Shown: in pieces, positions 10,201 to 16,200 of the stretch
How the letters are laid out: the number at the start of each line of letters is the position of its first letter
How positions within the stretch are numbered: the first letter of the stretch is position 1
Virus record (IMG/VR): IMGVR_UViG_2684622670_000009
Coordinates: 1-64,000 of that record
Reading direction: 5' to 3' (one strand)
Length of the DNA stretch: 64,000 nucleotides
From: a virus
Taxonomy: Duplodnaviria > Heunggongvirae > Uroviricota > Caudoviricetes
Made by a program: the position numbers

Positions 10201-13200
10201 AATGATATTCAGACAACTGATATTTTGGCTGTTCTGCGGGCTGGGCATCGCCTGTATGCCACAGACTTGGGCGGCAGCTCCCGTGGAAGGAAAAGACTAT
10301 ACCGTGCTGAAGACACCGGTAGAGGATGCTCCTGCGGTGGTGGAGTTTTTCTCCTTTTACTGTCCGCCCTGTGCAGCCTTCAGCAGTCGTTTTTTTGTCA
10401 GTCAGGCAGTGGATAAAATCCTGCCATCCGGGGAGAAAGTGGTGAAGTATCACGTCGGCACAATGGGGCCGATGGGACAGGAGCTGACAGAAGCTTGGTC
10501 GATAGCAAAAGTACTGGGTGTGGAAGATAAAGTAGAGTTACCACTGTTTGCGGCGGTACAGATAAACAAGAATATTAAGACGGAAGCCAGTATTCGCCAA
10601 GTGTTCATTAATGCCGGTATTTCGGAAAGGGACTATGATGCAGCAAAAAACAGTATGGCGGTACGTGCCCTTACGGCAAAACAGCAAGAAGCGGCAAGAA
10701 ATTATGGTGTAACTGGAACACCTTCGTTTTTCGTAAGGGGAAAATATCTGATGAATAATGGGGCCATACAGCCGTCCAGTGAACAGGGCTACGGAAAAGC
10801 TTTTGCAGATGTTGTTAGCGTGTTGCTGAAACGTTAGGAATAAAGGGAACAAAATAGCTGCGATAACGCAAACATCACATTGGGAATATGTGCTTCAGAA
10901 ATATATCGGTGCTACGGAATGTTGAGCCTTTCCGAACCGCCGGGCAGGGTGAAAACCGTTACGCGTGCTGTCATTATTTTGAGGATAATGCCATTCGGAT
11001 AAAACATAGGTCAGTCGTATGGAAAGTGGATTGATTGGCTTGGTGTGTAGTTTTGCACAAGGATAGTGCTATGCGCAAAACAAGCAGCGACTTGAAGAAC
11101 AGGCCCGAAGAGATTGTTCTCTAGCGGAGGAAACATCATGCGGTACGATGGATATCGTGGGCAGTTGAAGAGCGCTTTGCCCGTATGAAAATTTACAAAT
11201 CAACAATGAGACTGCCAAGAATGATCAAATATATATCTATAGCAATACTGCTTACCAGTCTATCCAGCCACGCTGGATCGCTCATGTGTCCCACATCCAT
11301 TTTTATACAAGGGGATACTACTAACAAGTATGCGCAATGGGTTAATGGAGAGGCCACGACAAAAACAATGTCGATCTGGGACTGTATCAGAGGAGACGAG
11401 TTCTCCTATAAGTACACCCTCACTCGAGCTGACAGGGTATATTTAGGGACCTCCTATTACTCGAACAACTTAAATACCTACTCCGTCATACCGGGAAGCA
11501 AAAAAACGATTAGTGGCAGTTCACCATATATAGCAGAAATTGGATTTAACGCTAGCACACTAAATATGGGATACGCAAAATACGAGAACAACGATGTTCA
11601 AGGTGCTGGCACAGGGAAAAAAGCATATAGCTATCGGCCTAACGTTGACATAAAACTACGCCCTTTCAGTACAACGGAAACATTAGAGGGGACGTTCAGC
11701 GTAAATCTTGAGGACCAGTGGTCATATGTCGCAGACGACGATACGTCCAATCACGAAAGTAACATTCGTAATAAACTCGTAATTACGTATACCGCGATCA
11801 ATAACCATGCTGTAAAGGTGAATTTCAAAGACAACCAATTGTCGTGTATGGCAACTACTGGTAACACCTGCACAGCAACCACTGCACTAAATGCTGTTAA
11901 CAGTTCAGATAACGAAACCATTAACGCCAAACTAACATTCCAAGTAGTGTCCGATGGATCGTATAATGTGGAAATACAAGGTCTGGGAATGTCTAATATA
12001 CCACTTGGGCAACAAATAGACTACATGGTTCCTCCCTTTGGATCTGGGGACTACAAGCCTCTTACAATGAAAATACGCGGAGATACCGGTAGCGGGATAG
12101 TTACGATAAATGCAACAATTACCATATTATAAAGAATAAACTTTACCGCGTATTTGTCCTCTGATTCTTCACGAGCCAATGAGCCTGTACATCAATTTGT
12201 GTAATTGCTTGATTTTGATATGTTAAGTTCAATATTAACATAGGTTGAATTATAGACAAAAATGGGTACAGGCTCATGACTAATGAACAATCTAAAATAT
12301 CAAAGCCTTTGAAGACTGTAGTGGTTTACTGAATTTGTCCACCTGCACAGAGGTGATACGCTCATTTCAGAACAACACTGATGTGCCAATGTTCTAGCAC
12401 AGAATTCAAAGGAGAATTCTGCTCAACGGATTGTTGAGCAGAACTATACTGTAGCGGATGAAGGTTATTTCTCTGTTTTAGTGCCCAGATCGCCGGGCGT
12501 CGCATAATACGGCCACGCTATCTGATACAATAAAACCGAATAAAACATATTTTGAGGCAGTAGTGTGTTCGGCGTTGTTAGGAAAGACAGAAGACGAATA
12601 CGTTGATTTCGTCCTGTATGACCGCTCGGCGCTGACACTCATAGCCGCGACGCTCTACAGCCAGGAGCGTTTTGATAATGGTCAGATATACTCAGCCTGG
12701 CATTTACTGCCAGTGCCTGAAGAAGTTCACGACCAGGACTATGAGTTTGAGTCTTACGATTTGGAAGTTGAAGCCTTGGCACAGGCTGGAGAGAAAACTT
12801 GAAAAAGCGATACTACACAGTAAAGTATGGGACGCTACGAGCATTACAAGAGTTTGCTGACAAGCATAACGTTGAGGTGCGCAGGGAAGGGGGAAGTAAA
12901 GCTCTGCGCATGTACCGTCCAGACGGAAAATGGCGGACGGTCGTCGATTTTAAAACTAACAGCGTTCCCCAGGGCGTCCGCGACCGGGCATTCGAAGAAT
13001 GGGAGCAGATCATCATAGATAATGCATTGCTTCTGAATGCTGATTAATGGTTTTGTTTCCCGGTATCGTATTATACCGGGAAATATCTTTTTATATTAAC
13101 CCGCGGCTGCAATTAGTGCTGACCCAACCGCCAGTGTGGTGACAAGGCCTATAATGACCACTGTCGCTGTTACCCCGCCTGCAACAGCAGCTCCAGTCTT

Positions 13201-16200
13201 TGTTTTGGATAATTCTTTCTTTTCTAGAGAAATTATTTCTCCCATAGGAATAGACTGGTTATTAATACCATTGATATATTGTGGGGTAACTTTCGATACT
13301 GTCATTTCACCTTCGTCACCTGATTTTAACTTGTATTTTATTAGGTCTCCAGAATATATCTGTGGCTCGGTTAAATAATAAGTACTTCTTTCAAGATTTT
13401 TTTGCTTTATGTTAACTCCTTGATAAGAATGACATCCACATAACACAAGTGACAAAATTAACGTTGTCAGTAATTTTCTTTTGTTTTTTATCATTGCCAG
13501 TACTCCTTCTCTTTTTTTTATAGCTAAAACACATCATTCATTCCTGTCAAATAGTTTTGAGTTTGAGAGTGAGGGTTACGTGACGACGTTCTAAAAGTTG
13601 ACAGATAGCGGCAAAGACAATTTCATTTACAATATGTTACCTTTTCCTGTAAGTATACCTTGAGATAATTTTCTTTCCCCCATTAGTTGAGTGGCATGAA
13701 TGATATTAATAAATGACATTAGTTGTGATGATTTCTGATTCACATTTATCTCTCCAGCCATTGCCCTGATGTAATCGGCACTTGCCACGTTGTTATATTC
13801 TGTTGCGAAGCAGCATAACAACGTCAGAACATGCTCTGTCGTTATTTCGCTCCAGTTGATGTTGAAAAACTCATCACCTTTTTTGTCGTGTTCGGAATCG
13901 AAGATGCTTTGGTGGAGGATGTATTTGCCGGATTCCTTGCGCGGTAACTTGATCGCTTTCTGGCGTTCCAGCTCCTTGTAAATCTGCATTGCTTCAATCA
14001 GTACCGGCCTGCCGTTCATGAAGGGATCGCGCAATCTTACACGCTGGCCAACTCGACCAGTAATAAAGCTGTTTTCCTCTTCCACCAGCACGATAAAACC
14101 CTTTTCCTCTTTTTCTCTCAATTCGCGCAGCAGCTGGAGTTCCATGTCGCGGCGGCGTTCAGGGTAGCTGGTCCGCTCAGCCATTATCAGCTCGTTGTTG
14201 ATCCATGCAGCAGTCATTGACGCCGGTTTGCCGACGTTCATCGAAACAACGCATATTTTCTTATCCATAGCGCCCCTACAAAAAAGAAAAGCCACCAGCG
14301 GGGCTTAGCAATACAACTGAAGGTAGCGCCCGGTACTCAGACTGTGCCGTCCATGGAATATTTGAAAAGGGATCCATCCGTACCGGGCGTGTGATGATTC
14401 TGACTCAGGTCACTTGTCAGTTGTCAATCATTTAAGATTAAAAATAATATATTTATTAGTGCATGATGTTTGCCATTTCATAGGCGTCAGCCAGCAACTC
14501 CATCTCTGACTTGTTCAACAAGGTGAATTCTTTCTTTCCTCCAACCACACCATCGGCATGAACAGGGACCAGCCAGGGGTATTTTGCTCTTACTTCAGCC
14601 GGTGCTGCATGCTGGTGGTGCCATCTACAAAGTGGCAATTGCTTTTTATGACAACCCGGCGCGGTACGACCGGAGATATGGTGCAGAGACACCTCTTCAG
14701 ATATTACTCCATGCATATAGCAAGCAATGCAGGGGAGGGCGCCAAGAGTATTGGCGATACGGCGGTCGATAGTATCTCGCATTTTCTGATATTGAGATTC
14801 TCGCCAGACCGGATCAGCCAACTTCTCCCGTTGCCGAGCGATCGCTCGTTCTCTGGCTGCCTTCTGCCACTTACGGTGCTGTTCAATTTTTTGTTCGATT
14901 GTTTTCATATGGTCAAAAAAAAGGCGGCCTAATGGCCGCCTATGATGTCAAGGAGTGAAGTAATGGCAACGTCTTCGTAGTTGACTAACGCCACGGCTTA
15001 ATTATAGAAATAAATTAGAGCAATGTCAGCCGTTTTATTTATCGCGAATCACATTTTTTCTCTTCAGTACCTGTGTGCTATACTCCTTCTTGATTGATTG
15101 GATGCGGAATACAAACCTGCTCTTTTGTGCAGCCTGGCTCCTTGCCAGGCTTTTTTTTATTTCATCATGGAAGCTGTTAATGCTTTGGACCTTGCTGAAC
15201 TGATTGAGAGGGCTTTGTCAACGTGCCCAAAAAATTCGCCAAACTCAGACATCACTTTGGCAAAACCGCGCCGCGCTTCTTCCTCGGTGGCATTCATCAC
15301 GAAATGTTCAGCACTACGCATACTTTTGACAGGGAACGCAACAGATATTGAGTCAATATCAGGCATTCTATCGCTCAACTTTACAGTGACAATGACGGCT
15401 GGCGACTGAATATTAGTGCTTACAGACAGCACTACATATTTTCCGTCGATGTTGAAATCCTTTCTCATATGCCACCATAAATACCAAGCAATTAGAGCAA
15501 TTTCCTATACATTGACGGCTAATCACCATCTTCCAGCAGGCGCACCATTGCCCCCGTTTCACTATCCAGATTACGGATATAGTTCATGACAATATTTACG
15601 TTTGTCCAGCCACCAGCCTGCATGATCTCAGGTATTGAAACTCCGGCGCGGGCCATATCTCGTGCGGCTCCAACACGGGCACTGTGTCCAGACCAGGCTA
15701 GGTATCTCTGACCAGAGTCATCTTTTGCCCCGTAAATCAATCGGTGAGTTGCTTCAAAAATCCCTTCCAGGGCGCGAGTTGATAGCTGGCTGGTGGATGA
15801 TGGCGCGGCAACACCATTTTTTCTGACCCGGCAAAACAGGTAGTTATTCGGATCATCAGCGACACCAGAGACAGAAATCCATCGCTCGACCAGTTTAGTT
15901 ACCCCCAGGCTAAGTGCCTTCTCTACACCTGCGGTGCTAACCAGCGTTTTCGTTCTGCCAATATGGATTAACATTCTCCCACCGTCAGTACGCGAGATAT
16001 CTTTAACCCTGATCCTGGCAATTTCGGCTATACGTAACAGAGTGTTATAAGCAATCCCCAGAAATGCCAGATTACGTATATCCTGGCAGCGATCGCTATT
16101 TTCCATGAGTGAGCGAACCTGGTCGAAATCAGTGCGTTCGAACGCCAGCGCCTGTTTTGCACGTTCACCGGCATCAACGTTTTCTTTTCGGATCCGCCGC

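Follow-up and report, generated by a model that had tools for sequence, protein, structure and literature searches.

A lipoprotein gene carried as accessory cargo between mat and lxc in a P1-like phage-plasmid of Escherichia albertii

The lipoprotein gene and its cassette

The stretch of viral DNA analyzed here (IMG/VR record IMGVR_UViG_2684622670_000009, Caudoviricetes, positions 1 to 64,000; hereafter the window, meaning all 64,000 nucleotides) comes from a P1-like phage-plasmid, and our subject is the single gene lodged on its minus strand between the phage genes mat and lxc. This open reading frame (ORF) spans positions 13096–13494, with the stop codon at 13096–13098, and encodes a lipoprotein of 132 amino acids that starts with MIKNKRKLLTTLILSLVLCGC, has a Gly/Ala/Val-rich C-terminal end and is 100% identical to a hypothetical protein of Escherichia albertii. 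The ORF list and translation agree with the preliminary description of the locus, which gave this exact sequence as the only gene in the interval, and no other credible gene, transfer RNA or Rfam RNA (no Rfam match below E 0.2) was found between mat and lxc. The ATG codon is preceded, at a distance of 8 nt, by the ribosome-binding site AGGAG (13503–13507, minus strand), which is kept in all five alleles compared, namely those of the window and of four E. albertii plasmids. These alleles vary at 34 nucleotide sites and 7 amino acid positions, the ratio of nonsynonymous to synonymous polymorphism (pN/pS) is 0.08, and the C-terminal helix described below shows zero replacements against 45 summed pairwise synonymous differences. 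The ORF is therefore not a chance one and is subject to strong purifying selection.

Downstream, lxc (modulator of C1; 12799–13047, plus strand) converges on the lipoprotein gene and forms the right-hand border of the slot. Its product is identical to P1 Lxc at 81 of 82 positions, so that the gene previously placed there under the label 'lxc-like' is lxc itself. The upstream, co-directional neighbor is mat (maturation control; 13627–14295, minus strand; PHROG 1837), whose product is 88% identical to P1 Mat. The blastn breaks against phage RCS47 and the profile of guanine-plus-cytosine (GC) content delimit an acquired cassette of approximately 0.7 kb (13048–13750): RCS47, in which the site is empty and just 39 bp separate mat from lxc, loses homology with the window at 13047 and regains it at 13751, and the GC content of the cassette is 30–35% compared with 45–52% in the flanks. 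The cassette comprises the hairpin behind lxc, the lipoprotein gene, the 132-bp region upstream of it and the diverged last 38 codons of mat, which encode a Mat terminus only about 50% identical to that of P1. Around the cassette there are no insertion sequence (IS) ends, no repeat structure suggestive of an IS and no meaningful flanking repeats. A 20-nt inverted repeat, 85% complementary, links positions 12778–12797, just upstream of lxc, with 13746–13765, where homology to RCS47 resumes in mat, but probably by chance.

The distribution of the gene is narrow. The first 20 kb of the window and the P1-like plasmids of E. albertii match over 87–97% of their length with 94–96% identity, and among the 703 plasmids in PLSDB with a match to the mat/lxc region the lipoprotein gene is present in 24, at 95–97% identity. 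All 24 are from E. albertii, many of them from wild birds. A search for related loci added only two P1-like contigs from IMG/VR and found no related locus among the GTDB species representatives. The gene is absent from P1, P7, RCS47, SJ46 and JL22, the cassette was not detected by megablast in 5,426 complete E. coli genomes, and a tblastn search of 50,697 phage records (including P1, P7, RCS47 and SJ46) yielded no relative of the lipoprotein; therefore, the protein has no similarity to any P1 protein, including the P1 lipoprotein Mlp. Because it is present in only 24 of the 703 P1-like plasmids and absent from P1, P7 and RCS47, the gene is lineage-restricted cargo and not a P1 backbone gene, in line with its initial recognition as an accessory gene of the mat–lxc slot. 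In short, a P1-like phage-plasmid of E. albertii acquired the gene horizontally and carries it as accessory cargo in the res–mod variable region, one of the eight highly variable, low-GC regions described in P1-like phage-plasmids (PMC9603915).

As the preliminary description stated and the annotated P1 record confirms, in P1 the interval between mat and lxc is occupied by res and mod, which encode a type III restriction-modification (R-M) system. The further implication, that the lipoprotein gene has replaced res and mod, is incorrect. In the E. albertii plasmid pEA32_2 the gene order is mat, lipoprotein, res, mod, lxc, and pEA40_1 has the same order except that a transposase gene of the IS481 family separates the lipoprotein gene from res. 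Both plasmids thus combine the lipoprotein gene with a complete type III R-M pair, and replacement is ruled out. The concern that the gene might turn out to be a conserved backbone gene accompanying res and mod in relatives was justified with respect to the co-occurrence, whereas the presence in 24 of 703 P1-like plasmids speaks against the backbone. The interval between the lipoprotein gene and res in pEA32_2 contains a duplicated 100-bp stretch from the 3' end of lxc together with the hairpin (locus L005, 8400–8548, corresponding to 12947–13095 of the window), and full-length lxc follows mod, the duplicate lxc end being a recombination scar. This duplication suggests that the backbone first had the order mat–lipoprotein–lxc and later received the R-M module and the full lxc by recombination.

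Architecture, family and predicted fold

The protein consists of three parts. The signal peptide and lipobox (13432–13494, minus strand; residues 1–21, MIKNKRKLLTTLILSLVLCG|C) include a K/R-rich n-region, MIKNKRK, followed by the hydrophobic core LLTTLILSLV and LCG in front of Cys21, in agreement with the lipobox rule of the PROSITE PS51257 type. Cys21 is predicted to be the lipidated first residue of the mature protein, with His at position +2; in 41 homologues C21 is invariant and G20 is at least 90% conserved. The second part, a predicted small beta-barrel domain of the Sm/SH3-like type (13207–13431, minus strand; residues 22–96), begins right behind Cys21, with no linker. The third is a K-T motif, K99–T100, which is nearly invariant in the 41 homologues, together with a Gly/Ala/Val-rich hydrophobic helix that has no charged C-terminal tail (13099–13206, minus strand; residues 97–132). 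The best 19-residue window of this segment has a Kyte–Doolittle value of 2.42 and a sum of −0.89 on the Hessa scale, as expected of a membrane-competent helix. Both the lipoprotein-type signal and the C-terminal Gly/Ala-rich membrane segment of the preliminary description accordingly stand.

AlphaFold2 modeling with the family alignment gave a mean predicted local distance difference test score (pLDDT) of 91, rising to 96–98 in the barrel, with strands across residues 22–95 and a single helix at 97–131. In this predicted model the strands form the five-/six-stranded, strongly bent small barrel, superposable on Hfq, LSm and RimP, that characterizes the Sm/SH3-like fold. Foldseek searches of the PDB and of the BFVD viral models returned no match at E ≤ 0.001, and nothing below E 0.07 was obtained in a profile search of PDB sequences.

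An exhaustive HMMER search of 1.84 billion cluster representatives detected 55 clusters at E ≤ 1e-3, mostly from Enterobacterales. Three of these (P0018, P0041 and P0055), very long proteins with SpaA, PKD and immunoglobulin (Ig) repeats, were discarded as spurious similarities of beta-strands, their matches being confined to residues 46–94, 10–58 and 46–89, respectively. Nearly all proteins in the remaining clusters are 104–167 amino acids long and share the same three-part layout: the lipobox, a domain of approximately 75 residues with G-D, G and LE(K/R)KE motifs, and the K-T pair with a Gly/Ala-rich tail of 25–35 residues, at the very end of which 36 of 41 family members have no charged residue. 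The window protein matches no Pfam family at E ≤ 0.1 and has no usable match in NCBIfam; in PHROG it produced only weak, sub-threshold matches to signal peptides and none to a characterized exclusion family. At E ≤ 1, the 41 members produced scattered weak matches to YgdI/YgdR, spanin and DUF6232 models, which we did not use; the one match with a reported alignment range, to a spanin model, covers the signal peptide and lipobox alone. These proteins constitute a family of lipoproteins of about 115–140 amino acids that lacks a Pfam model and a characterized member and that now has a defined architecture and a confidently predicted fold. Near-invariance is confined to turn glycines, one Asp and the K-T pair at the predicted membrane interface, which indicates that the lipoprotein is probably non-enzymatic, a binder or oligomerizer functioning as a binding or scaffolding module.

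Proposed envelope role and the exclusion alternative

In the mechanism that we propose, the precursor would be exported by the Sec pathway, lipidated at Cys21 and cleaved by signal peptidase II. The mature protein would then present the small barrel straight after the lipid anchor, followed by the 35-residue Gly/Ala-rich hydrophobic helix, so that the barrel would be clamped flat on the membrane surface by two anchors, the N-terminal lipid and the C-terminal helix. The helix is hydrophobic enough to act as a stop-transfer segment in SecYEG, so that the most likely location is the inner membrane, where the barrel would be exposed on the periplasmic face. The outer membrane, where SlyB and YfgH reside, is a less likely alternative, considering that the +2 residue is not Asp (His here; Gln, Ser or Thr in relatives) and that basic residues are located on the periplasmic side of the helix. 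Through putative self-association of its helix, and through binding of the barrel to proteins or lipids of the envelope, the lipoprotein could alter the behavior of the carrier cell envelope, be it as a barrier, in its stability or through a membrane machine, and the family members on non-phage plasmids and genomic islands appear to serve the same role. A block to incoming phages would be a possible consequence of such a change and not its demonstrated purpose. That the gene is real, acquired, exported and membrane-anchored cargo independent of res and mod we consider highly probable. Its role we read, tentatively, as that of a lysogenic-conversion envelope factor, a doubly anchored accessory protein of the envelope, since plasmids, islands and a phage-plasmid all carry members of the family.

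Envelope stabilization by lipoproteins with membrane helices made of small residues has been described for SlyB and YfgH (bioRxiv 10.64898/2025.12.22.696046). Like SlyB, YfgH and OsmB of E. coli, which are non-enzymatic, oligomerize in a membrane and stabilize the envelope, the window protein is a small lipobox protein that would combine a lipid anchor with a Gly/Ala-rich helical membrane segment and a small periplasmic beta domain. The differences are nevertheless substantial. The helix of the window protein is C-terminal to the barrel whereas theirs are N-terminal; it is predicted as one helix of 35 residues as opposed to a two-helix hairpin; and it has small-xxx-small spacing without a true GxxxG repeat, its glycines (G101, G106, G107, G116, G124 and G132) forming no GxxxG pair. 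No glycine-zipper Pfam model (Rick_17kDa_Anti or the Gly-zipper families) was among the 25 listed of the 47 families matched by the 41 members at E ≤ 1, there is no sequence or Pfam relationship to the three E. coli proteins, and these are encoded in the core chromosome and not on mobile elements. The helix is also considerably more hydrophobic than those of SlyB, YfgH and OsmB, which points to the inner membrane. SlyB and YfgH are thus the closest known proteins by analogy, although every test of membership by sequence and architecture fails.

Two other groups of lipoproteins resemble the window protein in part. Llp of T5, Cor of phi80 and N15, and Ltp of TP-J34 are likewise small phage-borne lipobox proteins that act on the envelope and are single-gene cargo dispensable for phage growth. 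However, searches of PHROG, tblastn and BFVD revealed no homology to them in sequence or fold, and the family of the window protein is almost entirely non-phage. Neither Llp nor Cor is known to have a membrane helix at the C-terminus. YgdI and YgdR (DUF903) share with the window protein the lipobox followed by an SH3-like beta-barrel of approximately 55–75 residues, but are not known to have a C-terminal hydrophobic helix. The NCBIfam model NF033216 (YgdI/YgdR) weakly matched 11 of the 41 relatives, with a best E value of 0.0015, and did not match the window protein; these weak matches are probably due to the signal peptide and lipobox.

The content of the mat–lxc slot points in another direction. 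The variable slots of P1-like phage-plasmids, which are common in pathogenic Escherichia, decide what the lysogen gains, and our survey of this one, covering several phages and a sample of 60 from the 703 plasmids, showed an exchange of type III restriction, candidate defense genes, an acetyltransferase and the lipoprotein. The slot is empty in RCS47, contains the type III R-M system EcoP1I in P1 and holds the 132-residue lipoprotein in the window. Four alternative cargos were compared with PADLOC: a 373-residue protein with a RelA/SpoT domain in the SJ46 type (locus L032, 1033–2154; PDC-S33, E 7e-87), a 336-residue DUF2971 protein in pESBL-blaCTXM-55 (NZ_OQ423482.1; locus L033, 1078–2088; PDC-S31, E 3e-16), a 316-residue PIN protein in JL22 (locus L008, 3757–4707; PDC-S34, E 1e-11) and a GNAT acetyltransferase in pESA138_1 (locus L020, 6306–6911; no match). 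The slot is a hotspot enriched in defense and candidate defense genes and behaves as a one-gene defense hotspot, which lends indirect support to the exclusion function suggested in the preliminary description; the novelty here is modest and lies in the exchange of several PADLOC candidate defense genes, the variability of the slot itself having been published already. The lipoprotein gene shares with EcoP1I and the other inserts the slot, the low GC content and the variability between P1-like elements, but differs from them in that its product would be an exported structural protein and not a nucleic-acid-directed enzyme, and in that it can reside together with R-M genes.

This setting makes it possible, if less likely, that the lipoprotein is a single-gene phage defense, a superinfection exclusion protein that would either block genome entry at the inner membrane or mask a receptor in the outer membrane. 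Genome entry is the target of Ltp of Streptococcus phage TP-J34 and of the inner-membrane Sie proteins Imm and SieA, and receptor masking is exemplified by Llp and Cor; small prophage lipoproteins with such a role are already known. Besides the defense genes that alternate with it, the lipoprotein gene lies directly beside type III R-M genes in two plasmids, a stacking typical of defense islands, and the predicted location at a membrane surface suits proteins that act on DNA entry. If exclusion proves true, this would be a structurally new and very small defense at the membrane level, and its stacking beside restriction genes would be explained. Conversely, neither the lipoprotein nor two of its homologues has a family in PADLOC-DB v2 at E ≤ 0.1, the PHROG matches are all sub-threshold, and the searches of 50,697 phage genomes and of BFVD (E ≤ 0.001) found no relative. 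The slot also accepts non-defense cargo, namely the GNAT acetyltransferase, and expression in the lysogen is putative, with no promoter called and no control motif detected in the upstream gap. P1 adsorbs to lipopolysaccharide (LPS), a receptor that a lipoprotein would not easily mask. We give still less credence to the most specific form of the exclusion reading, in which Sm-like barrels, held against the periplasmic side of the inner membrane by both anchors, would form rings that block the entry of phage (or conjugative) DNA. The gene would then be a new single-gene determinant housed in the P1 defense hotspot and disseminated on plasmids and islands of enterobacteria. The anti-defense function also raised in the preliminary description was rejected as unlikely, because the protein is predicted to be exported and tethered to the membrane.

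The neighborhoods of relatives outside the E. albertii P1-like elements also weigh against exclusion: the family occurs there next to fimbrial, regulatory and transport genes, and no recurring recognized defense system was found in these neighborhoods. In a plasmid of Klebsiella oxytoca and in an Erwinia chromosome, the relatives adjoin chaperone-usher fimbrial operons; on Salmonella plasmids and islands, they lie beside MFS and Dabb genes, AraC-type regulators, an ArtA-like toxin gene and an ATP-binding cassette (ABC) transporter; on Serratia conjugative plasmids, a relative is found near replication and toxin–antitoxin genes; and other relatives have plain chromosomal contexts. By a raw count with near-identical loci counted once, about 6 of 14 contexts, the window included, have a chaperone-usher operon within 8 kb (L009, L012, L025, L034, L036 and 5704–12132 of the window), and AraC-family regulators are frequent neighbors (L011, L024 and L037). 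IncF plasmids from both E. albertii and E. coli carry a paralogue with 41% identity (p1RM10507; locus L002, 5944–6351), which adjoins an ABC transporter and a cluster of virK, lpxM, glycosyltransferase and deacetylase genes. Judging from adjacent accessions and matching sources, this paralogue and the P1-like copy apparently reside together in three E. albertii strains (NZ_CP043260/NZ_CP043261, NZ_CP030784/NZ_CP030786 and CP045689/CP045688). The label 'phage-related lipoprotein' attached to two UniRef relatives was dismissed, as their contexts are not prophages.

Some homologues adjoin toxin–antitoxin genes (VapC/ParD and TacA/TacT), and small residues abound in the helix, whose sequence is perfectly conserved among the alleles. 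These features raise the possibility of a membrane-active toxin, or else of an abortive-infection or addiction element that forms pores. Here, an Sm-like ring with a helix bundle would permeabilize a membrane, by analogy with entericidin-type lipoproteins or glycine-zipper toxins. We regard this as very unlikely: no cognate immunity or antitoxin gene accompanies the gene in any locus, at least 24 plasmids stably maintain it on its own, with purifying selection acting on it, and the only match to entericidin B is a weak one in 1 of the 41 members.

Taken together, the family-wide evidence points to an envelope role and the slot evidence to defense or exclusion; we place envelope conversion first and exclusion second, followed by the lytic-cycle role considered below and then by a toxin or abortive-infection function. 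Several points count against the envelope factor. The lipoprotein has no homology to any characterized protein, and the mechanism draws on architecture and neighborhood alone. Membership in the glycine-zipper group of SlyB and YfgH fails for want of a Pfam match and a GxxxG repeat and because of the single helix and reversed domain order. The slot is dominated by defense-type cargo, which favors exclusion; the association with fimbrial and AraC genes may be mere typical island cargo; and the resident membrane and oligomeric state are putative. Moreover, the gene has no convincing promoter of its own and mat is not followed by a terminator, so that most transcripts may originate at the mat promoters, which C1 represses and which are activated late. 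For now, the gene ranks as an unremarkable hypothetical accessory gene in a variable region already described, and accessory lipoproteins carried by phages are likewise familiar. If it does encode an envelope fitness factor, the phage-plasmid would carry a colonization trait of bird-associated E. albertii in addition to a fimbrial operon. With a confident fold model and a defined architecture, the family of about 55 clusters is now testable.

The fimbrial operon of the window (5704–12132, plus strand) is of the chaperone-usher, PefC/F18-like type and occupies the place of P1 darB, between prt and ulx. It encodes a major subunit, an 813-residue usher of the PefC/AfrB type, a chaperone, a subunit similar to F18 FedE, a DsbA homologue and a 315-residue putative adhesin, and the arrangement is common to about half of the lipoprotein-bearing E. 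albertii P1-like plasmids. The adjacent ulx (12563–12802) is cut down to an ORF of 79 amino acids, whose match is limited to the C-terminal 55 positions of the Ulx PHROG. With the operon in the place of darB and ulx reduced, the Dar anti-restriction set appears to be incomplete.

Control elements and flanking genes

Alignment with the annotated P1 elements shows that the control elements Omat, Pmat and LPmat are retained 5' of mat, including the C1 operator Omat at 14449–14465 and the −22 box of the late promoter LPmat at 14407–14415 (both on the minus strand). Omat and LPmat are the only P1 control elements able to drive read-through into the lipoprotein gene: a motif scan of 12900–14400 detected no C1 operator or late −22 box besides the mat elements, the scan and inspection of the 132-bp gap upstream of the gene detected neither of these nor a sigmaE-like or PhoP-box motif, and a terminator scan found no terminator-like site between mat and the lipoprotein gene. 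The gap contains a perfect −35 hexamer, TTGACA (13545–13550, minus strand), kept in all five alleles, but the best −10 element at a spacing of 17 nt, TTAGCT, is a poor match, and the promoter scan of the gap called no sigma-70 promoter, so that a promoter belonging to the gene itself is at best weak or uncertain. The gene may be reached by read-through from the mat promoters, which are repressed by C1 and activated late, or be expressed at a low level from the weak promoter in the gap.

These features are compatible with a lytic-cycle accessory gene that would be transcribed together with mat, from C1-repressed Pmat and Lpa-dependent LPmat, and act on the envelope during phage development, for instance by modulating lysis or by preventing re-adsorption to, or superinfection of, the producing cell. 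The gene is co-directional with mat and starts only 132 bp downstream of it, with no terminator-like site and, in the gap, no C1 operator, late −22 box or detectable sigma-70 promoter; furthermore, some family members weakly match models of spanin lipoproteins. We nonetheless judge this role improbable. The spanin matches are limited to the signal peptide and lipobox (residues 3–27), the upstream TTGACA is perfect and conserved among alleles, and most P1-like phages lack the gene. In addition, the homologues on plasmids and chromosomes stand alone behind long upstream regions of their own, so that the family is independent of a phage lytic program.

On the other side of the gene, where lxc and the lipoprotein gene converge, their stop codons flank a hairpin with a 13-bp stem (13054–13085). 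Because a run of T follows it on the plus strand only, the hairpin is a terminator for lxc, and it is part of the cassette because the homology to RCS47 ends at 13047.

Upstream of the cassette, the P1-type start of mat (ATGGATCCC..., MDPFSNIPWT) is present at 14280–14400 (minus strand), but a run of T lies between it and the long mat ORF, with which it is not in frame. The ORF therefore begins later in the window, yielding 222 amino acids from a GTG codon or 213 from an internal MDKK; in relatives, both 250-residue and 213-residue forms of Mat have been annotated in the databases. Past mat, the next genes are cre, c8 and ref, the last of which (14456–14908, minus strand) encodes 150 amino acids compared with 186 in P1, the match being limited to the C-terminal part. 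In several E. albertii relatives, an Icd-like gene and a KilAC antirepressor gene are found in the place of ref, a variable spot two genes away from the lipoprotein gene.

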